Below are positions 4,599 through 25,304 of a stretch of 40,807 bases of DNA, piece after piece. Origin of the DNA: a virus (taxonomy: Duplodnaviria > Caudoviricetes). Under the pieces are notes generated by a model, which was given only the letters and a program-made list of their open reading frames with translations, had not been told where the DNA came from and made no database searches. Positions within the stretch are counted from its first letter, which is position 1. Each line of letters opens with the position of its first letter. The stretch is taken from IMG/VR virus record IMGVR_UViG_3300033513_000025, positions 1 through 40,807 of that record. The stretch is one strand, 5' to 3'. The translations under genes were made by a program, and so were the position numbers.

Positions 4599-5861
4599 TT
4601 AGAGTTCGGGGTCGTGGGCCAGGTCGTTTGGGGCTGGCCTGCCGCCGAGGCCGTCCAGGTCGTCGAAGACGCATGGCTGGGCGCTTATGAGCTCGTCCGT
4701 GGGGAAGAGGTCGAAGAGGGCGAGTTGATTGTGATGACGGTTGAGGGCGCGCTGAAGGTTTCTAATCTGGTGCGCCATTCCGGCTTTCATGATGGTGTCC
4801 CACGCCTTGCGGTGGGTCTGGCGCAGGACGTAGAGGTGGGAGTTGGCATAGCCAAAGTCGGTGGCGCAGCCGATGCAGCCGTTGCGGCGGATGTTCTGCC
4901 GGGATCCGTCCTGGGCAATGTAGGTGAGGTCGTAGAGGGAGGCGTAGGGGACGTTGAAGCGGTGGATGTAGGCCCAGACGTCCGCGTCGGTCCAAATTGC
5001 CATTGGCTGGCAGTGGAAGAATGGGCGGCCGTGGAGATACTTCTTCTTGGCGCCTTCGAAGAGGTAGCCACGGGTGAGGAAGTTCTTGGCCCTGGAGCGT
5101 GACTCTGAGGCCATTAGGCCCTTGAAGATGAGGTCTACCCCCAGTTGCTCCTGGGCGCGCTCGGCGGGTTCCTTCTTGAGCGCCTGGCAGCAATGCTGGC
5201 TAATCTTGGCCTGCCTGAGTGTGTCGTAGTAGGCCAGGAGCGTGGGATCTGCACTTTGGCTGGTGGAGTAGCGGAGGAAGGTGTCTATGTTGATGCGGCG
5301 GGCGTCCAGTCGGCTCCACGCCTTGCCCAGGATCGGCCACCCGTACTGGTCCGTGCACCACCAGTACGACATGGTGGTGCCGGTGGGCCAGATAAGGCGC
5401 TGTTGCTCGAGTTGGGCGGTGAGCGCCGGCTGGCAGGCGCGCTCCAGCGCGTCGGTGGATTTGAGCTTGCCGTCGGTTTTGAGTACCTCGCCAATGCGGT
5501 CGGTTTCGATGAGGTGCTGCCAGATGATGCGTTGAGCGCTGTACTTGAGCCCTGGCCGGTCGGTCTTGGCCGGCCTGGTCTCGACGAGGTTGAGGTTCCA
5601 GTCGCGCTGCAACTGACGGGCGAACTGGATGCACTCGGGGAATTCCATCCCCGTGTTGCCGTAGATCACGGGCATGCTCTGGGCCTGCTCGGGGCAGGTG
5701 GCGTGGATGAGGTGCCGGAGGACGGTGGAGTCTTTGCCGGCTGAGAAGGCGATCGCCTGGCGCTGGGAAATGTCGAATGCTCGGCGGATGACGTCGGCGG
5801 CGACGTTGATCTTGTAGTGGAGATCCCGGGCCTGCTCGGCGTTGAGCTCAGCCCACTTCAC
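4599..5861 (-). CDS. Phosphoadenosine phosphosulfate reductase-family (PP-loop) protein, likely DNA modification
   Basis: AFSAGKDS PP-loop, NTGMEFPE, CCQALKKEP, GLMASESRSR, RNGCIGC. GTG start overlaps the upstream TGA. Confidence 0.85.
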   Translation of the reverse strand: MKWAELNAEQARDLHYKINVAADVIRRAFDISQRQAIAFSAGKDSTVLRHLIHATCPEQAQSMPVIYGNTGMEFPECIQFARQLQRDWNLNLVETRPAKTDRPGLKYSAQRIIWQHLIETDRIGEVLKTDGKLKSTDALERACQPALTAQLEQQRLIWPTGTTMSYWWCTDQYGWPILGKAWSRLDARRINIDTFLRYSTSQSADPTLLAYYDTLRQAKISQHCCQALKKEPAERAQEQLGVDLIFKGLMASESRSRAKNFLTRGYLFEGAKKKYLHGRPFFHCQPMAIWTDADVWAYIHRFNVPYASLYDLTYIAQDGSRQNIRRNGCIGCATDFGYANSHLYVLRQTHRKAWDTIMKAGMAHQIRNLQRALNRHHNQLALFDLFPTDELISAQPCVFDDLDGLGGRPAPNDLAHDPEL

Positions 5862-6196
5862 GGCTGCGCCTCCAGTGGCCACAGGGTGGCGTATACGTGG
5901 CCGGGATCGGCGGGGGTGTCTATGCGTATCAAGGGAGCGGTGGTGGTGCGGATGGTGTCGGGGTTGGGTGACGTGACGATTTTCAGGGTTTGGAGCAGGC
6001 GTGCGCCGCGCGCGTACTGCTGGTGCTTTTGGTGGGTGAGGTCGGCGCGTACGTGGGGATCGGTGATGTGGTCGAAGAGGTGATTGATCACCTGGTCGTG
6101 GGTGAGGCCGTTCTGTTCGACGTCGTAATTGACGGCGAGTGTAAAGCGCGCGGCCATCACGTCGGATTGAGTGATTTGTGCGGAGAGTTGAGCCAT
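5858..6196 (-). CDS. Hypothetical protein (112 aa)
   Basis: AGGAG RBS, coupled to the downstream gene. Confidence 0.65.
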   Translation of the reverse strand: MAQLSAQITQSDVMAARFTLAVNYDVEQNGLTHDQVINHLFDHITDPHVRADLTHQKHQQYARGARLLQTLKIVTSPNPDTIRTTTAPLIRIDTPADPGHVYATLWPLEAQP

Positions 6197-8052: not shown

Positions 8053-8215
8053 GGGGTGGGGCTCCTGGTGCCCACCTCGCCGATGATTTCCCGGGCGGGG
8101 AGCTCCTTTCCGGCGGGGTGGGCGTGTTTCCTTCTTCTACTACTACCCCCTCAAACCCCTCGCGTGGCCGATCTGGTGGGGCGGGGTGGGCTCGTGGGGG
8201 TAGTAGTAGTAGAAA

Positions 8216-10684: not shown

Positions 10685-11121
10685 TGGTTTTGCCTTTCCT
10701 GATCTGGCTCACCTGGTGTCCCACCCGCTGGAGGTCCAGCAGGTGGGACTTGACCGTAACCGGTGCCTATCGGGGCGGGCTTGCTCCGTTCTCGCGTTGT
10801 CCGCGCGTCTCTCGTCGGGCTGTCTCAGCACGGGCGCGCGGGGCTGCAACGGTCGAGGGCACACGTTGCCGGCCAGGCTATGAGCGTGTCAGGTTGGGCG
10901 AGAGTAGCGCTTTAAGGTTCTTTCTGGCGCATCCTCCGCCAGATATACTAATCATACCATAGAAACCAGGGAGAAAAGTGTGTGGTTGGTGAAGGAATAG
11001 TTAATTCCCAAGTTGGGATAAGTGCGACTTTGGGGAGATCGGGGCTTGGCTCCTGATCCTGGGGGCGGCCAGCACAGGGCCAACGGCTGGAAAGCCGTAC
11101 AGCAAGCAGGGGCAAGCGGCC

Positions 11122-11206
11122 GCGGATAACCGTCGAGCTTCCCACCCGCGACAGGCAGACCGACCGGCAGGAGAAAAAACCGGCGGATAACCGTCAAGCT
11201 TCCCAC
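11122..11206. repeat. Two 24-bp direct repeats GCGGATAACCGTC(G/A)AGCTTCCCAC
   Basis: Copies at 11122-11145 and 11183-11206, one mismatch. Confidence 0.85.
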
Positions 11207-11455
11207 TGACGGCAGGCAAGGCGACCAGCAAGGCGGGATCTCCTCTCCTCTCCTCTCTTCCCGCGCACGACAGGTACCGCTACCTCGCAGACGAGGCAGG
11301 CACAACAATTCTCCCCAGCCAGCAGACGAGAGACGGCGCGGGCGGGCCGGGCCGGGCGGCGACAAAAAACCAAGATCAGGGGGCAATAGGCACGCCATTG
11401 GCACGAACCCGCCCGGCCCGGCCCGCAAGGCCCACGGCGACCGCGGACCAGCGGG

Positions 11456-11797
11456 CTAACCGAAACCGGGCAGGGGCAGAGCGCGGGCGAGCACAGGGGA
11501 AGCGGACGAGGAAGCAGAGGGGACAGCGACAGGGGGCACGGGCAGCGGGCGCAGCACGAGGCGCGCCCAGCGGGACCGAGCGCAGGAGAACCGGCGCACC
11601 GGACGCGCCAGCGCAGCAGCGGCCAGACGGCGCGAAAGCGCGCAAGCCCGGCGAGAGAAGCCCAGCCCGCAGGACCAGCGGACCGGGCAGGCGAAGCAGA
11701 GCGCCAGGCCGGCGGCAGCGGCGCCCCCACCGGCGGAGGGCGGGACGCCGGCGCACAGGCCACCAGCGGGAACGGGAGCGAGACGCGGATCAGCCAC
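11456..11797 (-). CDS. A-less gene D (113 aa) with C-X18-C-X2-C-X5-C motif
   Basis: The GTG start overlaps the gene C stop (GTGGCTGA); it ends at a TAG made by a surviving A. Confidence 0.55.
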   Translation of the reverse strand: MADPRLAPVPAGGLCAGVPPSAGGGAAAAGLALCFACPVRWSCGLGFSRRACALSRRLAAAALARPVRRFSCARSRWARLVLRPLPVPPVAVPSASSSASPVLARALPLPGFG

Positions 11798-12206
11798 GGG
11801 CCACCACCCGAAACCACCCGCCACACGCGAGGAACGCGCGCGGAGGGGAGCAACGCGCCAGGAGCGCAGCAGCGCGCGAGAGGCCGCGCAGGCCCAGGCC
11901 GGCCACAGGCACACCGGCGACCGCCACGCACCGACCGGACAGCCGGACCGGGACGCGGATCACCCACAGGCCAGCGCGCAGGCGCACCGGGAGCGCACAG
12001 CCCAGCCGCCCGGCCCAGCGCGCGGCGAAAGCCCCAGCCCGGACCGGGCAGGAAAAGGCACAGGCCAGCACGGAGCCGGGCGAAGCGGCGCCGGCGAAAG
12101 GGCCAGCGCCCACGCCAGCGGGACCGACAGACAGAGCCGCAAGCCGGCCAGCGCGGAAGGCGGACCAGGCCACGGCACGGACGGAAGCGAGAGCCAGATC
12201 ACCCAC
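11790..12206 (-). CDS. A-less gene C (138 aa, MGDLALASVRAVAW...)
   Basis: The GTG start overlaps the gene B stop (GTGGGTGA), with a GGGGGT RBS; amphipathic, protein-like sequence. Confidence 0.6.
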   Translation of the reverse strand: MGDLALASVRAVAWSAFRAGRLAALSVGPAGVGAGPFAGAASPGSVLACAFSCPVRAGAFAARWAGRLGCALPVRLRAGLWVIRVPVRLSGRCVAVAGVPVAGLGLRGLSRAAALLARCSPPRAFLACGGWFRVVARG

Positions 12207-12633
12207 AGCACACCCCCAGCCCCGGACCACCAGAGCGAACGCGGGCCAGCGGCACCCACGCCAGCGCCGGGCAGGCGCCCAGCGCCACCGGCGAACCGAC
12301 AAAAACGAGCACGGAGCCGGGCCACACGACGACGGAGACGGCCAGGCCAGAGAGAAAGGCGCGGGCACGCAGGGAGCGCGCGCGGGCAACCCGGCCAGCG
12401 CCGAAAAACGACCACGCGACCACGGGACCGCAAGGGGAGGGCACAGAAGAGCAGGCGCCAGCGCCAGCGGAGCCGACCGAGAGAGAGAAGGCCAGAGCAG
12501 CAGGAAGACCCACAGCAGCACCCCCCAGCCCCGGCCCGAGGACAGCCCCGGACCGGGAGCGAAAGCGCAGAAGCGCAACCAGGCGGGCAGCCGGCGCCCG
12601 GGCGGCCACCCGGACACACGGACCGGAAAGCAA
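12199..12633 (-). CDS. A-less gene B (about 144 aa; start uncertain, frame is open further upstream)
   Basis: TTG at 12633 lies 6 nt after GGGGGTGG; it ends at a surviving TGA. Confidence 0.45.
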   Translation of the reverse strand: MLSGPCVRVAARAPAARLVALLRFRSRSGAVLGPGLGGAAVGLPAALAFSLSVGSAGAGACSSVPSPCGPVVAWSFFGAGRVARARSLRARAFLSGLAVSVVVWPGSVLVFVGSPVALGACPALAWVPLARVRSGGPGLGVCCG

Positions 12634-13055
12634 GCGGCACCACCCCCGCCGGCGACGGGGACCGAGACCGCCGGAAAGCGCCCGGGCCGGGCGCAACCAC
12701 CCGCAGCCCGCCGACCCACGAGCCCAGCCCGCCAAGGGCGAGCACCCACACGGCCGGACACCACCCAACCCACCCCGCACACGGCCCAGCGCGGACCGCC
12801 CAACGCGACCGGCGCCAGCCCCCCAGCGACGGGACCCCAGAGAGGAGGGCGAAGAAAAGCGGGAAGGACCCCGCCGGGACGCAGCCCGGCGCACACAGCG
12901 CAACCCCCGCGACCAGGCACCAGGCCGGGGGAGAACCCCCGGCCACACGACGACCACCGGAAGGAAGAAGAACCCGGGCACCCCCGGGACGAAGACCACC
13001 CGGCACCCAAGGCCGCACCCCCCACCCGGACCGGGCAGCGGGAGGGAGGACGGGG

Positions 13056-13496
13056 CTAACCCCAGCGCAGCGCCAGGCCGCCCGAGCAGAGAGAAACCAC
13101 CACCCGGACGCCCGCCGCCACCGCCACCGCGCGGAAAGCCGCAGCGAGGCGGAAGCGGGCGGCGCCAGCCAGGACGCAGCCCCAGGGCCCCCAGGGCGCG
13201 CCAGCCCCCCCGCAACGCCAGCGGGAGACGCCGACGGCACCCAGGGCGCCAGCCAGGGAAGCAAGAGGCACGAGGCACCCCCAGGCCGGGAGGAGAACCC
13301 CCCAGCGGAAAGGCCCAGACGAGCGGGGCCACCGGAGGACCAGGAGGACGAAGGACGGGCGAGGGGGACCAGGGGAACACAGCCCCAGCCCAACCCCGGG
13401 GCCGCGAGCGCCGCGCGCCACACGGGGGAGGGAGCAGGCCCCGCCCGAGGGAGCCGACCGGCGCCAACCCCCGCGCCGGGGAGGGAGGGCGGACAC
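13056..13496 (-). CDS. A-less gene A (about 146 aa; start uncertain)
   Basis: First candidate ORF after the A-less promoter; it ends at a surviving TAG. Confidence 0.4.
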   Translation of the reverse strand: MSALPPRRGGWRRSAPSGGACSLPRVARGARGPGVGLGLCSPGPPRPSFVLLVLRWPRSSGPFRWGVLLPAWGCLVPLASLAGALGAVGVSRWRCGGAGAPWGPWGCVLAGAARFRLAAAFRAVAVAAGVRVVVSLCSGGLALRWG

Positions 13497-13591
13497 CCCG
13501 CCCCACAACAGGCCCCGAGGCCAGCCCGGCGCAACCCCGCCGGGGAGGGGGACCCCCACCGGGCCCCGACCACCCACCCACGAACAACAAC

Positions 13592-13620
13592 AGGATACCA
13601 CAAAGCGACAAAAAAAGCAA
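13592..13620 (-). promoter_or_regulatory. Promoter TTGCTT-N17-(TGG)TATCCT for the A-less operon
   Basis: 17-bp spacer, extended -10 TG; its only A is the conserved -11 A. Confidence 0.65.
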
Positions 13621-14785
13621 GAGGGAAGGGGACCAGATAACCCAAAGATAACCCAAACAGAGGCACCAAAAAGAAAACGGACACGAAAACCCGAAGGGGC
13701 AAGACAACCCGACAAAGCGAGGGAAAACGCCGGCGCAGCAGGCCAGCCCCAGCCACCGGCCAGCCCCAGCCCACCGGCGGGAGCGCCCCAGCCGACCGGC
13801 CAGCGCCACCCAGGCCCAGCCGGCCCCCCGCCGAGACAACCCCCACCAGGGAAATTTGGCGGGAACGCGCGAGAGAAGAGGCGGAGGGGGAAAGCGCGAG
13901 CGCGCGAGTGGCCGACAAGAAAAAGATAACCCGGGGAGGAGGGTGGAGGATCAGGCGGGGGGAAGGAGATAACACGGGGGCGAGGCGCGCGCGGGGCCGC
14001 AGTGGGAGGGGGGCAACACTCCCGCCAAAAGTCAGAGTTCCAGGACCGTCCCGGGGCGGGAGGCGGTTGGAAAGTCGCTGCTTTCGGCCCCCCTCCCCAA
14101 GGCCCCGCCTTCCCCCGCGCGCACAGGGCCAGCGGCATGAAGGGAACGGTATCGGTCTGTTGGCGGGGAAAGTGCCGCTGTTCAGGATGCCGCTGGGCCT
14201 GAGCCCCCGCCCCCGGAACGACAATGAGAGCCTGCCGCGGGACGAGACAGGGCTTGGGATTGGTCACGGCTTCAGACGCCCCACGAGGGGGACCCCGACC
14301 TCAATTGAAAGTGGCGGTCAAGGCCGGGAGGCCCCCAGAGAGGTGCAGGGGTTGGCTTTGCGGGTTAGGGACCAGTCCTTGAGGTCTTGGTTGAGATGGA
14401 TTGCGGGTGTTTGCCCCTGTCGGGTACCACTCGCTGCGCCTGGAGGGGGCTTTGCTGGGTGGCGAGGTGCCGCGCGTGGGCCGGGGTGGCGCCTTTGAAG
14501 TTCTGGCTATGCGCGGCTGCGGGGCTCCGGTTCTCCTCCCCGGAGTTGCGCATAGCCTCTTCTGGGACGGCAAGAGGCGAGGGCTTTCGGTTGAGGGGCT
14601 CAGGGATAAAGTTGTGCGGTACTCCGCGCATTCGGCCCATGCTCCAGGACCGTCAGCGGACTGAGCGGCAAATCACTGGAGAAGTGTGAGGCCTTGTACT
14701 GAGGGCCAGCAGGAGATCAGGTACCCATTCCCCTAAAACAAAAAGATAAGCGCGACGCGAGGTAGTGACGGTTTCGCAGGGGCTG

Positions 14786-14823: not shown

Positions 14824-15303
14824 TTACACTCCGTCTCGCGCGTCTTTTTTGTGAGAATCAATATCGTCGGGGTGAACGTACCACACTCCACAGCGGATGG
14901 CGCGAATGGCTCCAGTGCGAGCCTGGTACTGGATGGTGTGCCGGTTGACGTGGAACTGCTCGGCTGCCTGGCGGGTGGTGATGTAACCTGCTGGCGGGGT
15001 AGGGGGCACACGCTGGCTGATCCGGTCGCGCTCACGTGCGCCGGTGATGTTCTCGACGTTGACCAGGATGAGGGCACCATCGTGGCGAGCTTGGAGGCGC
15101 CCGCGCTTGATCCAGCCGTAGATCGTCTTGGGGCTGTTGCCGGTGAGGGCGGCAGCCTCGCGCACGCTTCGCCAAGGGCTTGGCTCATTGGCGGGTGTGG
15201 GTTGGCCGATCAGGCAGGGGTAAATGTTACAGTCTCCGCAGTGGTTTGTTGCAGCGGGACAGGCTGCGGGCTTGGGTCCATAGAGCAATTGGGGCGTGGT
15301 CAT
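14824..15303 (-). CDS. Tandem MerR/excisionase-type (HTH_17-like) DNA-binding protein
   Basis: SVREAAALTGNSPKTIYGWIKRGRL and TTRQAAEQFHVNRHTI; ATGA overlap with the upstream gene. Confidence 0.8.
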   Translation of the reverse strand: MTTPQLLYGPKPAACPAATNHCGDCNIYPCLIGQPTPANEPSPWRSVREAAALTGNSPKTIYGWIKRGRLQARHDGALILVNVENITGARERDRISQRVPPTPPAGYITTRQAAEQFHVNRHTIQYQARTGAIRAIRCGVWYVHPDDIDSHKKDARDGV

Positions 15304-16166
15304 TTCTCCCTCCTGCACTTGTAGGGCCAAAACTCGTTGTAGGGGATCGAGCCAAACCATCGGGTATGCCACCAGTACTTGACGAAGCGCCTTAGCTCCA
15401 GGTCTGTCCAGGGTGGGTGGACGTAGGAGTTCTTTTTCATGGTGTCGAGTGGCTGGTATCTCATCGGGCGGGGGTCTATGCCCCATTTGTGCTTTAGCGT
15501 TTCGCAGCGATAAAGTGCATCGGCGGGCGTGTCGTCGAAGCCGGCGAGAACGTAGACGCCGATCGTCTTGACGCCGATGCCGGCCCGGCGCAGGCGCTGG
15601 ATGGCGTCGTAGACGGCTTGCTCGTCGCGCGTGTGGTCCCAGGCCAGGCGGACTTTGAAGAGGTCCAACTCTGCCAGGCGGCGGGCGTGGTGGTCGGTCA
15701 AGAGGCGCGCGTCGAGCCCCTGGTTAAAGTCCACCCCTGGGACGGGCTTGAGCCGGTCAACGACGTGGTCGAAGTGGCGCTTGGAGCAGGCCAGCAGGTT
15801 GTTGTCGCACACGATAGGCTTGGGCTGCCAGTCCGGCAACTCGACCAACTCTCCCTCGATCTTGGGCACGGCGCAGAACTTGCACTTGTTGGGGCATCCG
15901 CGGGAGGTGAACGTGGCGTCGGGGTTATGGTGGTGGAGGGCATTGGTCTCGCCGCCGATCTGCGCGGTGCCGGCGAGAAACTCGGGGTTGAGGCTGACGG
16001 CGGGGCCGCCGGCGCGCACGTGGAGGCCCTGTCCGCGGTAGAAGGCGGCCCACTTGCGGGCCTGGGGCAATTGCCAGGTAAAAACGACGGAGAGGTAGGC
16101 AACGCCTGCCTGTACCCAGTGGCAGAGGTGGTCGTTCCACGTGGTGTGCGGGCTGGCGTTGCTCAT
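15300..16166 (-). CDS. Radical SAM protein
   Basis: TSRGCPNKCKFC (CxxxCxxC), DNNLLA, DFNQGLDARL, YVLAGF. Confidence 0.88.
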   Translation of the reverse strand: MSNASPHTTWNDHLCHWVQAGVAYLSVVFTWQLPQARKWAAFYRGQGLHVRAGGPAVSLNPEFLAGTAQIGGETNALHHHNPDATFTSRGCPNKCKFCAVPKIEGELVELPDWQPKPIVCDNNLLACSKRHFDHVVDRLKPVPGVDFNQGLDARLLTDHHARRLAELDLFKVRLAWDHTRDEQAVYDAIQRLRRAGIGVKTIGVYVLAGFDDTPADALYRCETLKHKWGIDPRPMRYQPLDTMKKNSYVHPPWTDLELRRFVKYWWHTRWFGSIPYNEFWPYKCRREK

Positions 16167-16396
16167 CACTGCCCTGGCTTTCTGCCTGGCTTGAGGGTGG
16201 CGGCAACTCGCTCGACGTCGGTGACGCGGACGCGCCAGAGTTTGGTGCCGTCGCGCTGGGCAGTGATGCGGCCCTCGGTGGCCCAGCGCTGGATGGTGCG
16301 GGCTGGTACGCCGGTGTGGCGGGCGGCGTCGCGGACGCTGACCAGGTTGTTGGGCCTGGCGCGGGCCTGACGGCGGTTCTGGGTTTTGGTGCTCAC
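16166..16396 (-). CDS. HTH_17-like DNA-binding protein (76 aa)
   Basis: SVRDAARHTGVPARTIQRWATEGRI; GTGA overlap. Confidence 0.8.
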   Translation of the reverse strand: MSTKTQNRRQARARPNNLVSVRDAARHTGVPARTIQRWATEGRITAQRDGTKLWRVRVTDVERVAATLKPGRKPGQ

Positions 16397-16536
16397 GGTG
16401 CACCTGTGAGGTCGAGGGCGGGGCCGTTGAAGTTGAGTGTGGGTGTGGGGAGAAGGATGGGAGCGAGGGCAAGTGTGATGAGGGCGGCGGTTACGATGGC
16501 GAGGGCCACGAGGGCTAGCTTGGTGTCTTTGCTCAT
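16393..16536 (-). CDS. Small single-TM membrane peptide (47 aa)
   Basis: AAAGGAG RBS, first gene after a consensus promoter. Confidence 0.65.
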   Translation of the reverse strand: MSKDTKLALVALAIVTAALITLALAPILLPTPTLNFNGPALDLTGAP

Positions 16537-18096: not shown

Positions 18097-18262
18097 TGGG
18101 TTCCTCCGGTAGGGTGTAGGGCGGGATGGCTGGCACGATGAGCGCGCGGCGCCCAGTGGCTGCTTCGGCGGCTGTGCGGAGATCGGTCAGGGTGATGGTG
18201 TCGAGGTCCTGGAGCAGGGCCTGGCGGATTGGGTCAGTGAGCGGGCAACAGAGTTCATCCAC
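18059..18262 (-). CDS. Hypothetical protein (67 aa)
   Basis: GTG start with GGAGG RBS at the end of the FtsK gene. Confidence 0.55.
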   Translation of the reverse strand: MDELCCPLTDPIRQALLQDLDTITLTDLRTAAEAATGRRALIVPAIPPYTLPEEPNAPKTTESGPRA

Positions 18263-19676
18263 GTTCGGCCTCCTCCGCCAGGGCGACGATGCGGGCGGCG
18301 CGGTGGTAGAAGGCGCCCTCGGGGGCGTGGCCGAGCAGGTCGCGGCATACGCAGGTTATAAAGCCTCGGCGGTAGCCGGTGCCGGCTGAGTCGTGGCGGC
18401 TTGGCCAGAGGGATAGAGCGCGCAGTTGGTTGGCCAGGGCCTGGTCGGGGTCCGCCTGGATTGGTTGCGGGTCTGGCTCGACCTTCTGGATCTGAAACAG
18501 CGGCTCGGCCTGGTGGGGAAGCCGGCTGACCACGTGGGCGATCTCGCGCTCGGTGATGTGGGCGACCTGGAAGCGGATGGCGCGGCCTTCGGCTATGGCT
18601 ATAAAGTCCCCCTGGCCTTGCAACCTCTCTGCCCCGGTGCCGCTCCAGCCGGTTGCGGTGCGTGCATCCTCGATGCTGGTCACTCGGCCCACGAAGCGGG
18701 TGGGAAAGTTTGCTTTGACGAGTGGGCCTAGCACGGCGGCGGTGGGTTTCTGGGTGGCGGCGACGACGTGTATGCCTACGCTACGGCCGCGCTGTACGAG
18801 GCGGGTGAGCGCCCACACGGCGGCTGGGCCGCCGAGCATAAGCAGGTCTGCCAGTTCGTCTATAAAGAGCACGATGGTGGTGCGGAGGCCGGTGGTGGGA
18901 TTGGTGGGGTCGGGGTCGGTGGGTGATGGGGGGCGTGGGTATTTGTGGGGGTTGTCGGCTCGGTCTGTTCGGGCGTCCATGAGGTGTACCAGGGTCTGGA
19001 TGGCGCCGAGGGCCTCCCGGTTGTCGGTGACCGGCGGGATGGCCAGGTGTCTCAAGCCGTCGAAGGGTGCGAACCCGCCCCTGCCTCCATCTACGAGGAC
19101 CAGGCGCAGATCGGTGGCGGTGTTGGCCAGCGCCAGGCTGGTGATCATCGCCTGCAGCAGGACCGTCTTGCCTGATCCGGTGGTGCCGGCCACCAGGATG
19201 TGGGCGACGTCGGGCGAGGGCAGGCGGACGAGGAGCGGTGCGCCGTCTTCGGCGAGGCCGAGGACGGCGGTGATGGGGGGAATTGGGGGTTGAGGATTGG
19301 GGCTTGGGGATTGGAGGTTGGCGACGGTGTCTGTGAGTTGGTCGTAGAGGCGGAGGAGGTGGACGGGCTGGGGGTCGGCGCGCGGGATCTCGACGGCCAG
19401 GGCCGCGCCTGTGCGGCTGACGCGGCAGTTGTCGGTCTGCATGGCGGCGGCGAGTTCGTCGGCCAGGTTGGTGATGGGGCCGAGGCGCTGGCCGATGGAC
19501 GGGATGACCTGGAAGCGTACCCAGCGCGGGGTGACGGTGCCGCCGGTGACGTGGGCCTGGATCTTGTTCTGCCTGAGTACCTGCTCGATGCGGTCGGCCT
19601 GGAACTCCAGGGCCTGGCGGATGGGTTTAGGCGTGGCGGTCTGGTTCTGACCTGGTGGAAGTCTGAGATTTGTCAT
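18255..19676 (-). CDS. FtsK/SpoIIIE-family DNA translocase ATPase
   Basis: HILVAGTTGSGKT, LFIDELADL, GRSVGIHVVAATQKP, GAERLQGQGD. Confidence 0.92.
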   Translation of the reverse strand: MTNLRLPPGQNQTATPKPIRQALEFQADRIEQVLRQNKIQAHVTGGTVTPRWVRFQVIPSIGQRLGPITNLADELAAAMQTDNCRVSRTGAALAVEIPRADPQPVHLLRLYDQLTDTVANLQSPSPNPQPPIPPITAVLGLAEDGAPLLVRLPSPDVAHILVAGTTGSGKTVLLQAMITSLALANTATDLRLVLVDGGRGGFAPFDGLRHLAIPPVTDNREALGAIQTLVHLMDARTDRADNPHKYPRPPSPTDPDPTNPTTGLRTTIVLFIDELADLLMLGGPAAVWALTRLVQRGRSVGIHVVAATQKPTAAVLGPLVKANFPTRFVGRVTSIEDARTATGWSGTGAERLQGQGDFIAIAEGRAIRFQVAHITEREIAHVVSRLPHQAEPLFQIQKVEPDPQPIQADPDQALANQLRALSLWPSRHDSAGTGYRRGFITCVCRDLLGHAPEGAFYHRAARIVALAEEAERG

Positions 19677-19768
19677 GGTGTCTCCTTTTGACTATACTGG
19701 TCCTGGCGCGGGTTGGGGTGTCTCCTTTCCCGCGCTGGCCCTGGGGGTTTCGGCCCCAGGGCCTGTTT

Positions 19769-20368
19769 TTATGCCGGGATGGTGATGATGGTGTTGTCTG
19801 GCTCGTCGTCGCCGTGGTCGTAGAAGGGTTGGTCGTCCTGGTCGAATGTGTCCTCGTCGCCTGCGGGCTGGGCGGGGTCTTGAGTGGGTGTGGTGGGGTG
19901 ATGGGGGTGGATGAACTGGTTGGGTAGGGGTGGGATGTGGGACAGGTCGCCGTCGTAGGAGGAGTATGCGGTGTACTCTGGTTTGTGCTCGAAGAAGGCA
20001 TAGTGCTGGGCGGCGTTGTCGGCGGCGTCTTGCCTCATCCCGCGGGGGATGAAGTAGACGTGGGTGAAGTCCTCGGGCGGGGTGAAGTTGTCGTTGGGGA
20101 CGACGATGACGCATTGCCGCTTGTGGGAGACGAGTACCTGGAATCGTGGATCGGTGGAGTAGTAGGCGGCTTCGCCGTTGGCCTCCAGGGTGTCGTCTAT
20201 GATGGCGCGGACCTGACGAATTGCTTTTTCGGTGAGCAGTTGGGCGACGGTGCCGGCGTCGTTGTCTACGTCGGCGCTGATGGAGATTTGAGGGCTGGTG
20301 TTGTTGTGGTCACCGAAGGTGCGCGTTTCGCGGTATGTGACGGTTAGTTGAGTGATTCTCATTACCAT
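19769..20368 (-). CDS. Hypothetical protein with acidic tail (about 199 aa)
   Basis: MVMRITQLTVTYRET...; overlaps the ParR-like stop. Confidence 0.7.
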   Translation of the reverse strand: MVMRITQLTVTYRETRTFGDHNNTSPQISISADVDNDAGTVAQLLTEKAIRQVRAIIDDTLEANGEAAYYSTDPRFQVLVSHKRQCVIVVPNDNFTPPEDFTHVYFIPRGMRQDAADNAAQHYAFFEHKPEYTAYSSYDGDLSHIPPLPNQFIHPHHPTTPTQDPAQPAGDEDTFDQDDQPFYDHGDDEPDNTIITIPA

Positions 20369-20613
20369 TGTCCGTTCAGTAGGTTGTCCAGTAGACCGGC
20401 TGTCTCCTGATCCTCGGCCTGCTGCTGGCTGGTCTGCTGGCTCTGGCCGGCGAGTCCGCCGGTGAGGGCGTTCTTGATCATCTTCTCTCTTAACCAGGTG
20501 TCGGCCTGGCTGAGGGAGCGCAGGAATTCGAGGAGGGCGGGATCGTCGCCGGGGCGCCAGCGTAGACGGAGGCGGAAAACCTCGCCTGGTTCCTGTGGTC
20601 TGCCCCTGCTCAT
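20362..20613 (-). CDS. ParR-like adaptor/DNA-binding protein (83 aa)
   Basis: Small protein directly after ParM, with an N-terminal strand-helix-helix pattern and an amphipathic acidic tail. Confidence 0.55.
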   Translation of the reverse strand: MSRGRPQEPGEVFRLRLRWRPGDDPALLEFLRSLSQADTWLREKMIKNALTGGLAGQSQQTSQQQAEDQETAGLLDNLLNGQW

Positions 20614-20633
20614 TGTCTCTGCCCTCCCCCCTC

Positions 20634-20684
20634 GAATTTCGTGGCCAAACAATTCCCGGTCTGAATTTCGTGGTCAAACAATTC
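20634..20684. repeat. Two 22-bp direct repeats GAATTTCGTGG(C/T)CAAACAATTC between parM and parR
   Basis: Copies at 20634-20655 and 20663-20684. Confidence 0.85.
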
Positions 20685-21792
20685 AGTCAAGGTACCCGGC
20701 CCGGCGGGCCAGTTTGGCCAGGCCGCGGGCGTTGGCGGTGACGGGATCTGGTGCTATCTCGGTGTGGGGCCACTGGCGCCTGATGCGCTCGCCCAGCGCG
20801 AGTGCTCCGCCTCCCAGGCACAGGACGCGGAAGCGGCGGGCGTTGTCCACACGCTGCTCGACGAAGCGGACTACTTCGCTGCCGTGGGCTTGCACAGCCT
20901 GGCGCACGGCGCTGGTTACTTCCACTGCTTGCCCCTCCACGAAGACGTGGGCCTTCTGGCCGTTGGTGACCTGGCGGGTGAGTACGTCTGCCTCGTGCAG
21001 GGACAACTCCAGGCCGTAGCGCTGCTGGATGGTGGACGCGATCGCCTCGGCGGAGCGGCGCATTCCCAGGTTGTCCCCACCCGTGTAGCGGGTGCTGATC
21101 TTGCCGCCCTCGATGGCAACCAGGTCCAAAGTGTTGAATCCTATGTCTACGATGAGGGTCGGGGCTTTGGCGGCGTCGGTGCCGCGTGTCCACTGGCCGG
21201 TGTTGGTGAGGCCCCAATCGAACCACCCAGCGACGGGCTGGGCTACGCGAGCGCGTACCTGGGTGATGTCCATCTCGGCGGGCGCGCCGTTGACAGCAAA
21301 CGCGTGGTGGCCGACCATCCACTGGTGCATTCCGTCTTCCGTCTGGCGGGCCTGTTCGGGGTCGAGCAGGATCTCCACGGGTAGGGCAACAGCGATCGCC
21401 AGGGAGTGTGAGCCTCCGTCTATGAGGGGCCACAGGGTGGCGTACAGGAGTGCGCGGGTTTCCGGGCCGTCCACGAAGCGAGCAAAGTCCATCCGCTCGA
21501 TGGGCCGGGCGTAGCGCTCGACGGCCTCGCCGGCCAGGTAGGATTGTCCATCGAACGTGACGACGTGCGGGCGGCTTCTCTCGCGGCCTCCGCGTACGAT
21601 GCCGGCCAGGTTCAATGCGCCGGTAGACGTGGTCGAGCCGATGCCGACCACGGCCGGGATCGCGGAGGTGACGATCTGGAGTTCGGTCACCCCTTGGATG
21701 GTGACCATCTGGACTTCGGCGGCCTTGGAGCCGCCGTGGCCTGGGTCCCATCCGATCTTACGAACTGCGGCTTGGTGATTGTTGGTGGTCAT
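20683..21792 (-). CDS. parM: ParM/StbA-family actin-like ATPase
   Basis: IGWDPGHGGSK (phosphate 1), IVDIGFNTLD (phosphate 2), LGGGA (adenosine), ANARGL. Confidence 0.85.
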   Translation of the reverse strand: MTTNNHQAAVRKIGWDPGHGGSKAAEVQMVTIQGVTELQIVTSAIPAVVGIGSTTSTGALNLAGIVRGGRERSRPHVVTFDGQSYLAGEAVERYARPIERMDFARFVDGPETRALLYATLWPLIDGGSHSLAIAVALPVEILLDPEQARQTEDGMHQWMVGHHAFAVNGAPAEMDITQVRARVAQPVAGWFDWGLTNTGQWTRGTDAAKAPTLIVDIGFNTLDLVAIEGGKISTRYTGGDNLGMRRSAEAIASTIQQRYGLELSLHEADVLTRQVTNGQKAHVFVEGQAVEVTSAVRQAVQAHGSEVVRFVEQRVDNARRFRVLCLGGGALALGERIRRQWPHTEIAPDPVTANARGLAKLARRAGYLD

Positions 21793-23042
21793 TGTAGTTG
21801 GTCTCCTTTCTGATTTTGAAGCGTGTACCAGGCCAGCTTCTGGCCCAGGTTGAGGTGTTCGGTGGTGGTGGTGACGTGACACCCAATCGTGTTTAAGCGC
21901 CGCTGGAGGTAGGGCGCATAGTCGTGCGAGACGTGCAGGTGCACGACGTCGCCGGCCAGGACGTCGGCGAGGCTGACGAGTTGGCGGACGACCTCGAAGG
22001 CCCATTCTCGCCGACGTTGTGCGTTGGCCGGTGCGTCGGTCCAAACGGGGTTTGGTTGATGGCCAGCGATGGAGTAGGGCTTGAGGGCCCCGGGTCCGTT
22101 GAGGGTTAGGATGTGGTGGCAGCGCCTCTCTGCCCAGTAGAGTTGTTTGTCATAGAGCTGGCGACCAGGTGAGTTATCTGGTGTTGGGGCCTGGATGATG
22201 GAGATGCGGCGGGGGTAGGATTGCTCGGCGGCTGGCGGCTTCTGGTATACGAGGGCGGTCTCGGTGGTGATCATCGGGTAGTCGGGGTTGTTGGCGGCGC
22301 AGATGCGACGGTAGCGGGAGGGGATGGTTCGGCGTTGCTCGCGGCCGGTGAGTGAGAAGCCGATGGCGTGACAGAGAGTTTGGGTGTCGGCGGTGACTGG
22401 GACGACGTTGGCTTTGTGGACCTTGTCGCCCACGATCAAAACGAGGGTTCCGCCCGGGACCAGGACGCGCTGGCACTCGCGGTACACCTGGATCATCGCC
22501 CGCAGGTACGTTTCGTAGACGTGGATGTTGGCCAGTTGCCGCGGGTGGAATCCGTAGCATGAGCCGTTCGGGCCGAGAGTGGTGCGGGTTAGGGAGTTGC
22601 CCGAATGAGCGTTCCAGTTTGAGAAGAGGTCAAAATAGGGCGGGCTGGTGATGATGACCGGGATGGAGCTGGATGGCAGGGGCAGGTGGGAGGCATCCCA
22701 CTGCCCGACCTGCGCCGGCGCGCTGAAGAGGCTTTCGGTGTGGATCCGGAGCGCGTTTTGCTGTTGGAGTTGTGCCCACGGCGTTTCGACGTCGCCGGTG
22801 ATGACCTGGCGGCCGGTGTACAGGGCCAGCAGGATCGAGCCGGTCCCACCCATCGGGTCGAGGAGGGTTTGACCTGGTTGGGTATACAGGTGGATGAGGT
22901 GGCCTAGCCAGTTGAGGTTAGTCTTGGCCTGGTGCTCGAAGGACTGTTCGTCGAAGCGCAGACTCCGCCTTTGGTGGTGGTCGCGCGGGAAGGTGAAAAC
23001 CGGGGCTTGGCCCGGGCTGGTTTGCGTGTTTAGAAGTGTCAT
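21789..23042 (-). CDS. N4-C/N6-A DNA methyltransferase-like domain fused to a DUF6884-like domain
   Basis: LLDPMGGTGS and IITSPPY; the C-terminus has RQLY..YWAE..RREWA..V..QL..LNLGQKLAWY. Confidence 0.78.
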   Translation of the reverse strand: MTLLNTQTSPGQAPVFTFPRDHHQRRSLRFDEQSFEHQAKTNLNWLGHLIHLYTQPGQTLLDPMGGTGSILLALYTGRQVITGDVETPWAQLQQQNALRIHTESLFSAPAQVGQWDASHLPLPSSSIPVIITSPPYFDLFSNWNAHSGNSLTRTTLGPNGSCYGFHPRQLANIHVYETYLRAMIQVYRECQRVLVPGGTLVLIVGDKVHKANVVPVTADTQTLCHAIGFSLTGREQRRTIPSRYRRICAANNPDYPMITTETALVYQKPPAAEQSYPRRISIIQAPTPDNSPGRQLYDKQLYWAERRCHHILTLNGPGALKPYSIAGHQPNPVWTDAPANAQRRREWAFEVVRQLVSLADVLAGDVVHLHVSHDYAPYLQRRLNTIGCHVTTTTEHLNLGQKLAWYTLQNQKGDQLQ

Positions 23043-23275
23043 TGTTCTTTCACCAGTATCTGTCTAAGTTCTGTCAGGGCGTTGAGTTGATCCAGGAGCG
23101 AGGCCTCGACGGCGGCCAGCAGGGCGTAGAGCAGTTTGGGCGTTACGGCGTTGTCTGCCTGGGCCTGGAGTAGGGTTTTCACTGTCTCGTGTATCTCCTG
23201 GTTGGTCTGGGCGATAGCGTCTAGGCGGCGCTTGACTGTGCTGCCGCCGGGCTTAAGCCTATCTGGTCTTTTCAT
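23039..23275 (-). CDS. Hypothetical protein (78 aa)
   Basis: Coupled to neighbours. Confidence 0.6.
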   Translation of the reverse strand: MKRPDRLKPGGSTVKRRLDAIAQTNQEIHETVKTLLQAQADNAVTPKLLYALLAAVEASLLDQLNALTELRQILVKEQ

Positions 23276-23618
23276 CCTCGCGCCTCCGTGCGGCTGACAG
23301 GGCGCGGTGATTCTCGATTGCCTCAGCCTTGGCTGTCTGCTGGCAGTGTCGCCAGATGGAGCCGAGTGTCATGGGGGTGCCGCTGGCTGCGAAGCAGGCC
23401 AGGGCCCACAGGATGGGCCTCCAGCCGGCCAGGTGGCCTGCGCCGGCGAGGGTGACGGCCGACCCGCCGATCACGAGGATGGCGGTGTAGCCCCGGTCAC
23501 GGTGGGTTCTCTCCAGCCAGGCGACGAGGGCGTTATAGGCCAGGCCGAAGAGGAGTAGGCCGGACAGGATGAGGGCGATCCGCGGGGGGGCGGGGTCTTG
23601 TTGGCGGTTTCGTGGCAT
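23259..23618 (-). CDS. Membrane protein with about 3 TM segments (119 aa)
   Basis: GAGGAG RBS, hydrophobic segments. Confidence 0.7.
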   Translation of the reverse strand: MPRNRQQDPAPPRIALILSGLLLFGLAYNALVAWLERTHRDRGYTAILVIGGSAVTLAGAGHLAGWRPILWALACFAASGTPMTLGSIWRHCQQTAKAEAIENHRALSAARRREDEKTR

Positions 23619-23634
23619 TTCTCTGGTCTCCTCT

Positions 23635-23777
23635 TGTCTTTTCTTATTTTCAGGGTAAGTGTTTAAGTCTTAATGTCTTTCATGTTGTGTCCTGGACACA
23701 AGGCCCTTATGTCCTGGACACAAGGCCCTTATGTCCTGGACACAAGGGCGGTGTTGCCCTTATGTCCTGGACACAAG
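23635..23777. repeat. Probable replication origin: 4 iterons TGTCCTGGACACAAG(GCCCTTA) beside an AT-rich tract
   Basis: Copies start at 23688, 23710, 23732 and 23763; AT-rich 23635-23685; directly downstream of the initiator gene. Confidence 0.75.
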
Positions 23778-23781
23778 CAAA

Positions 23782-24666
23782 TTAGTGGTCTGGTTCCTCT
23801 GGCGCGAGGGTGGAGAAGGTGAGTTGCTTCCATTCCTCGAAGTTGGCGTGAGCCTGGGCCAACCGGCGGGCGTGGCGTTCTTGGAGGCGAGGGGTGAGGA
23901 GTTGGGCCTGGGCGGGGGTGAGCATGGGGAGGTGGTCCACGACGTTGAAGGTGTAGACGGTCTCGCGTCCCTCGCCCCAGCGGGTTGTCCACACGATCCG
24001 CTCGCGCTCGAGGACTTCCAGCGCTCCGATCATTCTGGCGTGGCCTGGTCGCTGCTTGCGGCCGAGGATCTTTTGGCGGTTGCCTTGGGCGCACGTGTCG
24101 GCCAGGGTCTGGATGGAGGGCCATTCCGGCCTGATCTTGGGGTCCCAGGCGGCGGGGAACGACTTGAGTGTGCACCACAGGACGAAGGCGGGGTTGCCGA
24201 GGAGTGGTTGCCAGAATTGGAGCTCGTAGTTGGTGACCTGGACGTATCCGATGGTAGGGTCGAATCCGATGAGGCGAATGGCGAAGCGGGTGGAGGGGGG
24301 TTCGTTGGTATCTTCCTCTTCTCCTGCTGCTTCTTCTTCTTCCCCGGGGCGGCTCGTGGCCGCCCCGGGTCCAATTGCTGCGGGCGCGCCTGCGAATTCG
24401 CGCTCGCTTCGGGATGTCTTGGGTTGGTGTTCGACGGTGAACGCCAGGTCGAGTGGCTTGCCGTAGACGCGGGCTGCAGTGCGCTTGATGGTGGCGGCCA
24501 GCCGGTTTTGGAGCCAGTCCTTGGCGTATGCGTTTTTGGTGGTGACTGTTAAGGTGCTGCCGCACAAGGAGGCGGTTGAGTCATGTAGCCAGGTGTCAAA
24601 TGTGGCCTGGGTCATTTGGAGTTTGAGTTGTTCGAGTGTGAGTTGCCAGGTGTCGGTGTCCATCAT
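23782..24666 (-). CDS. Phage replication initiator with DnaA N-terminal domain and probable wHTH
   Basis: WQLTLEQLKLQMTQATFDTWL...NAYAKDWLQNRL (DnaA_N-like); WPSIQTLAD (replisome organiser HTH). Confidence 0.8.
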   Translation of the reverse strand: MMDTDTWQLTLEQLKLQMTQATFDTWLHDSTASLCGSTLTVTTKNAYAKDWLQNRLAATIKRTAARVYGKPLDLAFTVEHQPKTSRSEREFAGAPAAIGPGAATSRPGEEEEAAGEEEDTNEPPSTRFAIRLIGFDPTIGYVQVTNYELQFWQPLLGNPAFVLWCTLKSFPAAWDPKIRPEWPSIQTLADTCAQGNRQKILGRKQRPGHARMIGALEVLERERIVWTTRWGEGRETVYTFNVVDHLPMLTPAQAQLLTPRLQERHARRLAQAHANFEEWKQLTFSTLAPEEPDH

Positions 24667-25304
24667 ATCTCCAGGGTTGCGGTGAAGCGCGGGAGGCCGG
24701 CCTGTACCCAGTTGCGCCACTGGGTGGCGTACTTGGCTGGATGGTGTGCCCAGGCGGTGCCGTCTACGCTGTCGGGTAGGGTTCTGAGGCGAGAGGCTCG
24801 GGCGACTGAATTGACACGGCCTATGTGTGTCCATTTGCCGAGGGCTTTTGCCTCGGTGATGAGGTTTGCGGCTGCGGGTCCAAGTTTCCACTGGGTTGAT
24901 CCGCCAATGAATAGCGCATCGAGGTCTTGCCAGGGCGTAGTGAGATTCTCAAGGCCGTCCTGGCCGACGAGGGCGACGGGAAGGCCAAGGGCTCGAATGA
25001 TGTGGCCCCAGCAGGCGAACTTTTGGAGGGTAGCGGCGGCGTTGCAGGGAACGTCTGGAGCGTTGGCGAATAGGCATTTGTGGGGGTCGTGTGCTGCGCG
25101 GATCCGTAGGAGGAAGTTGAGGAAGGTTATGGGGTTCCAGCTGTTGCCTTGGCTGTAGCAGTCGTTGTCAACGCCGAAGCGGAGGCCGTGTGTACGCTGT
25201 TTTGTAAAGGTGCGTCTGGGTGTTAGCAGCCACCCGTAGTGGTCTGGGTCGGTGCCGAGCGTTTCGAGAAGTGACTTGGCGTTGCCGGGAAGGAGTAGTA
25301 TCAC
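24663..25304 (-). CDS. TGT/DpdA-like TIM-barrel protein (putative deazaguanine DNA transglycosylase)
   Basis: FGVDNDCYS, APDVPCNA, QDG, LFIGGST, THIGRVNS, DSVDGT; GTGA-coupled to queT. Confidence 0.6.
   Translation of the reverse strand: MILLLPGNAKSLLETLGTDPDHYGWLLTPRRTFTKQRTHGLRFGVDNDCYSQGNSWNPITFLNFLLRIRAAHDPHKCLFANAPDVPCNAAATLQKFACWGHIIRALGLPVALVGQDGLENLTTPWQDLDALFIGGSTQWKLGPAAANLITEAKALGKWTHIGRVNSVARASRLRTLPDSVDGTAWAHHPAKYATQWRNWVQAGLPRFTATLEI

Follow-up and report, generated by a model that had tools for sequence, protein, structure and literature searches.

An almost adenine-free gene block in a phage genome: a candidate cassette for escape from an adenine-reading defence

The sites of toxins of the MazF/PemK/ChpBK type are given as ACA, UACAU, UACA, ACY, and UAH, the known RNase toxin sites contain AC or UA[CAU], and HigB of Proteus vulgaris is described as cutting essentially any A-containing codon (PMC7781912). 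CmdT of CmdTAC, an anti-phage enzyme, modifies single-stranded RNA by ADP-ribosylation at N6 of the A in GA; it reads mRNA adenine and blocks translation (PMC11618068). Avoidance of defence targets is already known, and exclusion of a whole base over an operon appears not to have been described: in the literature searched, mostly open-access texts, we found no description of natural A-free genes, nor of a natural HigB-proof gene. Phages and plasmids avoid restriction sites in the DNA that enters first.

Here, we analysed a stretch of 40,807 nucleotides, referred to as the window (IMG/VR record IMGVR_UViG_3300033513_000025). It is a complete circular phage assembly with a 127-nt terminal overlap, and its minus strand carries every recognisable gene of the phage. 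Gene matches comprised the portal, the large and small subunits of terminase, and a head protease/major head protein, as well as a PAPS-reductase-like protein, excisionase-like regulators, radical SAM, HNH, FtsK, a ParM-like actin, an N6/N4 methyltransferase, and a replication protein. A search of 50,697 annotated phages gave no DNA match to the window. The region 18255-24891 encodes the ParM-like actin, FtsK, and a replication protein whose N-terminal domain is that of DnaA, and no integrase match was obtained; hence, this is possibly a phage-plasmid. The N6/N4 methyltransferase is fused to DUF6884 (21789-23042), the PAPS-reductase-like protein adjoins the terminase (4599-5882), and the radical SAM protein is of the B12 type (15300-16472); these may be DNA-modification genes.

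Between the end of the regulator/replication genes (around 14365) and the small genes leading to terminase (from 10684 down), we observed a block whose coding strand is almost devoid of adenine. The block and its features are as follows.

11400..13854, minus (coding) strand: A-free block, 8 A in 2,455 nt
13621..13854, minus strand: A-free upstream DNA, presumed untranscribed; its 2 As, at 13638 and 13649, belong to a short direct repeat
13592..13620, minus strand: predicted sigma70-like site, TTGCTT-17 nt-TATCCT, with TGTGG before the -10
13272..13585, minus strand: A-free 5' leader without coding signal, ending in a GGGGGTG ribosome-binding site; folding z +1.16
13056..13271, minus strand: ORF D', 71 aa, GTG..TAG; probable gene, possible distant paralog of A'
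12514..13055, minus strand: A-free spacer without coding support; folding z -0.10
12199..12513, minus strand: ORF A', 104 aa, GTG..TGA; real gene, matching an independent family profile
11790..12206, minus strand: ORF B, 138 aa, GTG..TGA; real gene, its start overlapping the A' stop by 8 nt
11456..11797, minus strand: ORF C, 113 aa, GTG..TAG; real gene, its start overlapping the B stop by 8 nt
11342-11359 / 11409-11426, no strand: 18-bp perfect inverted repeat at the downstream border of the block

In 11400-13590, the minus strand contains 5 A in 2,191 bases, where the composition of the rest of the genome predicts about 475 (log10 P = -221). An earlier note had counted these five adenines, and they were confirmed base for base, the plus strand having exactly five T (11457, 11790, 11960, 12199, and 13057). 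The longest T-free run of the plus strand in the block is 857 nt, compared with 62 nt for the longest A-free run of that strand in the whole window. The limits first given were too small: the real span is 11400-13854, with three further coding-strand As at 13596, 13638, and 13649. With an A content of 0.23%, the window block is among the most extreme cases in this analysis. Two 61-nt imperfect repeats and several GGTTATC/GTTATC words also flank the block (11106-11227, 13638-13649, 13927, and 13970); these may be operator or origin sites.

The four stops that had been read from the surviving adenines were found in place (TAG 13058-13056, TGA 12201-12199, TGA 11792-11790, and TAG 11458-11456), as were the two 8-nt stop/GTG overlaps, GTGGGTGA at 12206-12199 and GTGGCTGA at 11797-11790; the stop at 13056 overlaps no start. 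The fifth A, at 11960, had been taken as part of an Ile codon. It does belong to an Ile codon of ORF B, at a position occupied by Ala, Ser, or Val in homologs, but it also forms a TGA in the third frame (ORF 11960..14224), and it sits within a 29-nt near-copy of the 11790 junction (repeat family D4). The proposed ten-residue alphabet held broadly, except that ORFs B and C carry one Asp each, contributed by the overlapped stop.

The block is not an artefact, since the related phage G003 has a comparable one at the matching place. G003, which is related to the window phage through terminase (69% in the best segment) and radical SAM (54%), carries a 2.3-kb A-free block matching in position and strand, and in both phages the block forms the head of the small-gene arm toward terminase. 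The five As of its core (2,137 nt) are four TAG stops and one ribosome-binding-site A; three of the four TAG stops stand in GGTTAGCC context, like the two TAG stops of the window. Five TAG stops in the two phages (window 13057 and 11457; 8465, 9163, and 9968 of L031, the G003 locus) share the near-palindrome GGT-TAG-CC (Gly-stop). Inverted words like TATCCCAA/TTGGGATA precede the next promoter-like site in the window (11005-11020), L031 (about 8130-8170), and L047 (1415-1455). Among 27 terminase-related loci, L009 and L027 have A-poorer stretches upstream of terminase and L015 has no A-poor stretch in 10 kb; most of the others are too short to show one.

Every stop codon contains A, so long open frames within the block prove nothing, and Pfam, PHROG, and NCBIfam gave no family for any of the four ORFs. 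ORF B was matched at E <= 0.01 by 9 of 1,179 candidate proteins, which are 43-50% identical and built from the same residues; its loci came from pattern matches (4/92, 1/46, and 7/597, the last scan covering 34 of 64 parts). Identity at the three codon positions was 0.57/0.68/0.39 over 8 distinct loci (820 codon pairs), and the claimed frame reached z 19 versus at most 6.8 and 4.3 in the other two (60 shuffles per pair). ORF C, which has a conserved CxxC..C, has a single homolog, with 49% identity, encoded by the final gene of the G003 block; the codon-position identity with this one homolog was 0.61/0.65/0.39 (94 pairs), the claimed frame gave z 10.4 versus at most 2.7 in the others, and none of 85 stretches in a viral scan held a further homolog. 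The frame-specific conservation proposed earlier as a check was thus found for B and C, with homologs in the claimed frame and saturated third codon positions. Protein-level purifying selection on both is demonstrated by these codon alignments.

When ORF A was compared with 1.84 billion representatives, two matches were obtained: a 92-aa protein covering only the end of ORF A, and a relative that is close across the last ~110 residues but cannot be aligned ahead of them. The end of ORF A scored 34.4 bits with a profile of 6 relatives from which the window sequence was left out, and 0 of 600 shuffles scored above 8.8. The first 182 codons are unconserved in the close relative and have no coding signal, nor has the 5' part of ORF D; both are open because stop codons cannot be written without A. 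As the family match is confined to the end of ORF A, we placed the gene, A', at 12513-12199. Like ORF B, it starts behind GGGGGTG, and this site is aligned with the start of a gene in G003. No homolog of A' was found in a word-index search (0/187) or a viral scan (0/22). ORF D' is a 71-codon frame opened by GGGGGTG at 13271, and a codon model favours its frame there; the training set of the model comprised 23 A-poor coding stretches from relatives, of which one was picked in the wrong frame. It is the second-best match to the A' profile, although at 2.2 bits, a score that 13 of 600 shuffles equalled, this likeness is weak; the word-index search gave no homolog (0/68 candidates). On these sequence features, we consider it fairly probable, though well short of certain, that D' is a gene.

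Of the four ORFs supposed to be real genes tiling the region, B and C stand as drawn, A stands for its last 104 codons, and D is probable for its last 71 codons. Judged by conservation, the block holds three protein genes (A', B, and C) and probably a fourth (D'). They do not tile it: some 860 bases in the leader and spacer, and a further 230 bases lying upstream of the promoter-like site, lack coding support and are also A-free. Gene callers overextend such blocks because they are open in all frames; P0010, for instance, was called as 297 aa with a start upstream of its own promoter-like site.

The model of ORF B, built from 11 sequences, had a mean pLDDT of 75.5 and a pTM of 0.69, and the ESM Atlas had no usable match for this ORF. 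The models of A' and B share the order helix-strand-strand-helix-strand-strand, whereas their profiles showed no similarity (probability 0.2%). Against known folds, the best Z for B/A' was 5.2 (rmsd 3.3, 65 aligned), with RRM rows at Z 4.0-4.6; RRM/ferredoxin-like and LAGLIDADG folds were considered, and Foldseek gave no match at E <= 0.001. ORF B is predicted to be a basic alpha/beta protein of a new family and A' to represent a new small alpha/beta family. The cassette proteins are basic (pI 11-12); as modelled, small basic alpha/beta domains of this kind would be compatible with nucleic-acid binding.

In L037, L038, L040, L041, L046, and L047, the ORF B homologs directly adjoin an A-poor gene that we take to be SLOG/DprA-like; its profile had no match in Pfam, NCBIfam, or among solved structures (PDB). 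The window itself has no SLOG-like gene and carries four other small ORFs instead. The SLOG-like proteins of L038, L040, L041, L048, L052, L054, L055, L056, and L062 end in Q-x-x-L-F-like tails (QLSLL, QPALF, QPSLF, QLPLF, and QLALF), as does the third gene of L044 (QLSLF); the A of CAG is retained for the Gln of the tail, and the tails resemble a beta-clamp-binding motif and might serve as one. Window ORF C ends in LPLPGFG and an L051 protein in RLPGF. An A-free, Cys-rich (several CxxC) zinc-finger-like gene occurs in L031 (9450-9163), L044 (2148-2380), P0005, and P0006, free-standing in L031 and elsewhere fused to the ORF B family. Only one relative of a cassette gene is named; it is in an Ardenticatenaceae (Chloroflexota) genome, in which no terminase was found. 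Among 401 sampled Chloroflexota genomes, two have the ORF B family: this one and a weak match with two stops.

Subsequently, the expression signals were examined. The motif GGGGTG-N4/5-GTG/TTG occurs 4 times in the block versus 0.67 expected, and 1 of 300 dinucleotide shuffles reached 4. The GGGGGTG/GGGGTG site corresponds to the common GGAGGTG in which a wobble-pairing G takes the place of the A, and this A-free ribosome-binding site recurs in L041, L044, L046, L050, L051, and L054. The GTG starts, A-free ribosome-binding sites, and stop/start overlap that had been described were borne out for A', B, and C and are probable for D'. Translational coupling is plausible for A'/B and B/C, which overlap by 8 nt and have a ribosome-binding site, but D' and A' are 542 nt apart and uncoupled; the genes of relatives have 4-nt stop/start overlaps. 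The single A of the sigma70-like site (13596) stands at the conserved, invariant second position of the -10. The site fell below the threshold of the promoter scan, which called none; a separate scoring script ranked it best. Its counterpart in L031 is TTGCGT-17-TATCAT, and the site is the best-conserved stretch in comparison with G003; the last ~100 nt of the A-free DNA upstream also align with L031. As sequence signals, the A-free ribosome-binding sites and the conserved sigma70-like site support expression of the block. Among raw sequencing data, about 36% of the one matching DNA run yielded three short partial contigs, and the RNA run yielded none.

The leader (13585-13272) and the spacer (13055-12514) showed no folding excess over shuffles and no Rfam match, and a structured ncRNA is not supported. 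The spacer contains terminator-like hairpins at 12988-12973 and 12875-12858, a 67-nt segment (12856-12922) that is 82% like L031, and a TTG start at 13010, behind GGGGTG and in the ORF B frame, that has no other support. Three loci carry tandem repeats that are A-free or A-poor and fall outside the presumed transcript, either ahead of the promoter site or past the terminator: L044 (1720-2055), L050 (4730-4895), and L038 (6960-7150). In L052 (5815-5840) and L054 (5845-5870), the cassette is followed by a perfect 23-nt inverted repeat.

Selection acts on nucleotides, not residues. All three codon positions are without A; at the third, A was found in 37 of the 2,991 four-fold codons that 25 cassette coding stretches contain, compared with 9-17% in 12 ordinary window genes, and since these As are gone too, the pressure must be on nucleotides. 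The 25 stretches end in TAG (13), TGA (9, one of them a wrong-frame pick), and TAA (3), versus 40, 106, and 88, respectively, of 234 ordinary genes; TAA is thus rarer in the cassettes. We also counted the contexts of 221 scored As in 18 de-duplicated cassette cores (18,962 nt). AC accounted for 34 of the 221 against 35% expected (p 5e-11), and for 5 of 71 in the 12 strictest cores; TAC occurred once and GAC 6 times, with 21 and 28 expected. The commonest surviving contexts were CAG (67), TAG (31), and GAT (29). The context counts as a whole are not independent, as the genes are homologous and stops and Gln force TAG and CAG. The choice of Asp codon is free, unlike that of stops and Gln, and hence the avoidance of AC is not wholly forced: GAT:GAC was 19:3 in the cassettes versus 46:317 in ordinary window genes, and the homologous Asp of the neighbouring SLOG-like gene was GAT in 11 of 14 loci (p 0.001). 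GA was mildly low overall (56 of 221 survivors versus 37% expected), and no GA effect was seen at synonymous third positions (A 1.2% after G, 1.4% after C, and 0.9% after T). GATC was 2.5-fold over-represented among the survivors (19 versus 7.7 expected) and accounts for 3 of the window's 5 As.

Several simple causes were rejected. Surviving As are not protected in stems (mean pairing 0.59 for 73 As versus 0.62 for 144 random placements). UV-dimer avoidance is not supported by template CC, which stood at 1.05 of expectation, and is contradicted by the purine neighbours that surviving As favour, which would make template dimers. The sites of host DnaG primase correspond to CAG/TAG, the commonest survivors, so that avoidance of such sites was discarded as well.

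In 10 of 15 relatives, with start codons placed by hand, the first start codon marks the onset of the A-free zone (15-38 A in the preceding 100 nt and 0-7 after it); in the other 5, and in the window, the A-rich flank does not run to the first start. The 200 nt upstream of the called promoter site contain 0-4 A in 4 of 16 loci, 13-16 in 4, and 26-73 in 8; in 3 further loci no promoter site was called. The 5' leader of some relatives retains As, and in 4 of 14 relatives and the window, A-poor DNA continues beyond the last stop.

A message free of its target escapes a sequence-directed nuclease, and the avoidance of TAC, GAC, and AC resembles the MazF/PemK/ChpBK-type sites listed above (PMC7781912). 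However, the known cases lose one 3-5 nt motif, whereas the block loses a whole base over 2.4 kb, leaders and DNA upstream of the promoter-like site included, at the cost of half the amino-acid alphabet. Membership was rejected, since every A context is purged, though AC and TAC are the most depleted; by analogy, the block would work like MazF/PemK-type avoidance without being a member of it. A HigB-like enzyme would select against codon As, as in the cassettes that are A-free from start to stop (on the 5' side, 10 of 15 relatives fit), but it is ribosome-dependent and leaves the A-free leaders, spacers, and upstream DNA of the window, where A loss extends beyond translated codons, unexplained. 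CmdT is likewise an anti-phage enzyme acting on mRNA adenine (PMC11618068); however, G precedes three of the window's five As, Asp is preferentially encoded by GAT, all As rather than those of GA are lost, and the synonymous sites show no GA effect, and CmdT-type avoidance was rejected. As in restriction-site avoidance, an early region, adjoining the head of the early arm, is cleared of defence targets, but here the base is cleared and not the sites, G/C-only palindromes stay, and the borders often follow genes. The A-poor SLOG/DprA-like genes of mobile elements show the same A-free writing.

The purging could also act at the level of DNA, the block being the first DNA exposed or expressed and its A-free strand denying restriction sites or thymine-directed lesions; we regard this as rather unlikely, yet worth serious weight. 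Type I restriction uses a bipartite site with a methylatable A on each strand. Without A on one strand, no A/T-containing palindrome and no bipartite methylatable-A site can form; in a second version, a thymine-directed lesion cannot block the template. Coding needs would force the A-free strand to be the sense strand. Such a cause fits the lack of A in the non-coding spacers and in the DNA upstream of the promoter-like site, the A-poor DNA past the last stop, the tolerance of GATC, expected if its As are methylated, and the N6/N4 methyltransferase and PAPS-reductase-like protein encoded by the phage. On the other hand, 10 of 15 relatives retain an A-rich flank that reaches the start codon, although purging would cost least in non-coding DNA; there is no avoidance of G/C-only palindromes (CCGG 1.0 and GCGC 1.15 observed/expected), and GATC is not enriched genome-wide (0.95). 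A DNA-level cause explains the upstream A-free DNA and GATC better than a reading of the message does, and the gene-bound borders worse.

An adenine-specific mutator, either a sense-strand deaminase or a DGR-type reverse transcriptase, might have ratcheted As out so that essential ones survive. The sense strand is up by ~13 points in G relative to the rest of the genome, and a context bias with spread into the flanks would suit a local mutator; T is up by ~8 points too, however, relatives keep chemistry with A-free codons (Thr/Ser/Cys exchange in a SLOG-like motif) that are not simple A-to-G products, and the borders often coincide with gene borders. None of 72 ORFs scanned matched a reverse transcriptase or deaminase, no PHROG match to a diversity-generating retroelement was found among them, and 10700-14400 holds no long repeat pair. 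A DGR-type enzyme could be host-encoded, and overall we judge a mutator improbable. Little more can be said for a message transcribed without ATP, or decoded without U-containing anticodons, under an ATP-depleting or tRNA-cleaving defence, to which we give a slim chance. A is indeed absent from all three codon positions and such defences exist: ATP-depleting systems are known, and Cas13a reportedly cleaves tRNA anticodons. Yet neither version predicts the AC bias or the A-free upstream DNA, both sit poorly with the As retained in the 5' leader of some relatives, the tRNA version does not predict A-free ribosome-binding sites and leaders, and translation would still require ATP for tRNA charging. 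Finally, that the block is a non-coding origin or packaging signal, or an assembly artefact, with ORFs as by-products of stop absence, is very improbable indeed. Long ORFs come free where stops are impossible, ~40% of the transcribed part lacks coding support, Pfam, PHROG, and NCBIfam are silent, and repeats flank the block; but B and C have same-frame homologs with the codon-position signature and frame-specific scores, the fold predicted for ORF B is confident, and independent assemblies carry the same kind of block. The non-coding reading is refuted for A', B, and C and holds for the leader and spacer only.

The explanation we favour, with a confidence somewhat short of even, is a counter-defence cassette whose early message is purged of adenine and would stay translatable under an adenine-directed RNase or RNA modifier. 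In 10 of 15 relatives, the A-free zone opens with the first start codon, and this links the pressure to the message. The sigma70-like site would drive the block early in infection while a host defence cuts or modifies mRNA at adenines, and the A-free message would continue to be translated. The attacker, an RNase or RNA modifier, may act preferentially near AC, on MazF/PemK/ChpBK-like motifs, or it may be a HigB-like enzyme cutting any A-containing codon; the products may be counter-defence or takeover proteins that bind nucleic acid. Each kept A would pay its way as part of a stop, as the -10 base, or, in relatives, in a conserved Asp or Gln. Several points count against parts of this explanation: the ~230 nt of A-free DNA upstream of the -35-like site against an RNA-level attacker, barring an upstream transcript; the ~860 nt of A-free non-coding leader and spacer against a ribosome-dependent toxin, which would not demand it; and the over-representation of GATC against a message reading, since it fits DNA methylation better than a cause at the RNA level. 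The dependence among the context counts and the sub-threshold score of the promoter-like site weigh against it as well. No known enzyme fits the whole pattern.

The window adds three new gene families without a SLOG-like gene, corrected gene limits, A-free ribosome-binding and promoter sites, and the AC bias. By prediction, its proteins fold although Lys, Asp, Glu, Asn, Gln, His, Thr, Ile, Met, and Tyr are absent or nearly so, and we found no account of such proteins in the literature searched. The context of the surviving As provides a fingerprint for hunting the host enzyme, and synonymous recoding makes A-exclusion directly testable. Taken together, these findings suggest, with about an even chance of being right, that three-letter operons form a class in phages and mobile elements, written in a ten-residue alphabet with their own A-free ribosome-binding sites; they would answer an undescribed adenine-reading defence, to which AC is the worst context and GATC and TAG/CAG are tolerated, acting on the first message or DNA of an invader, and their products may disarm that defence.
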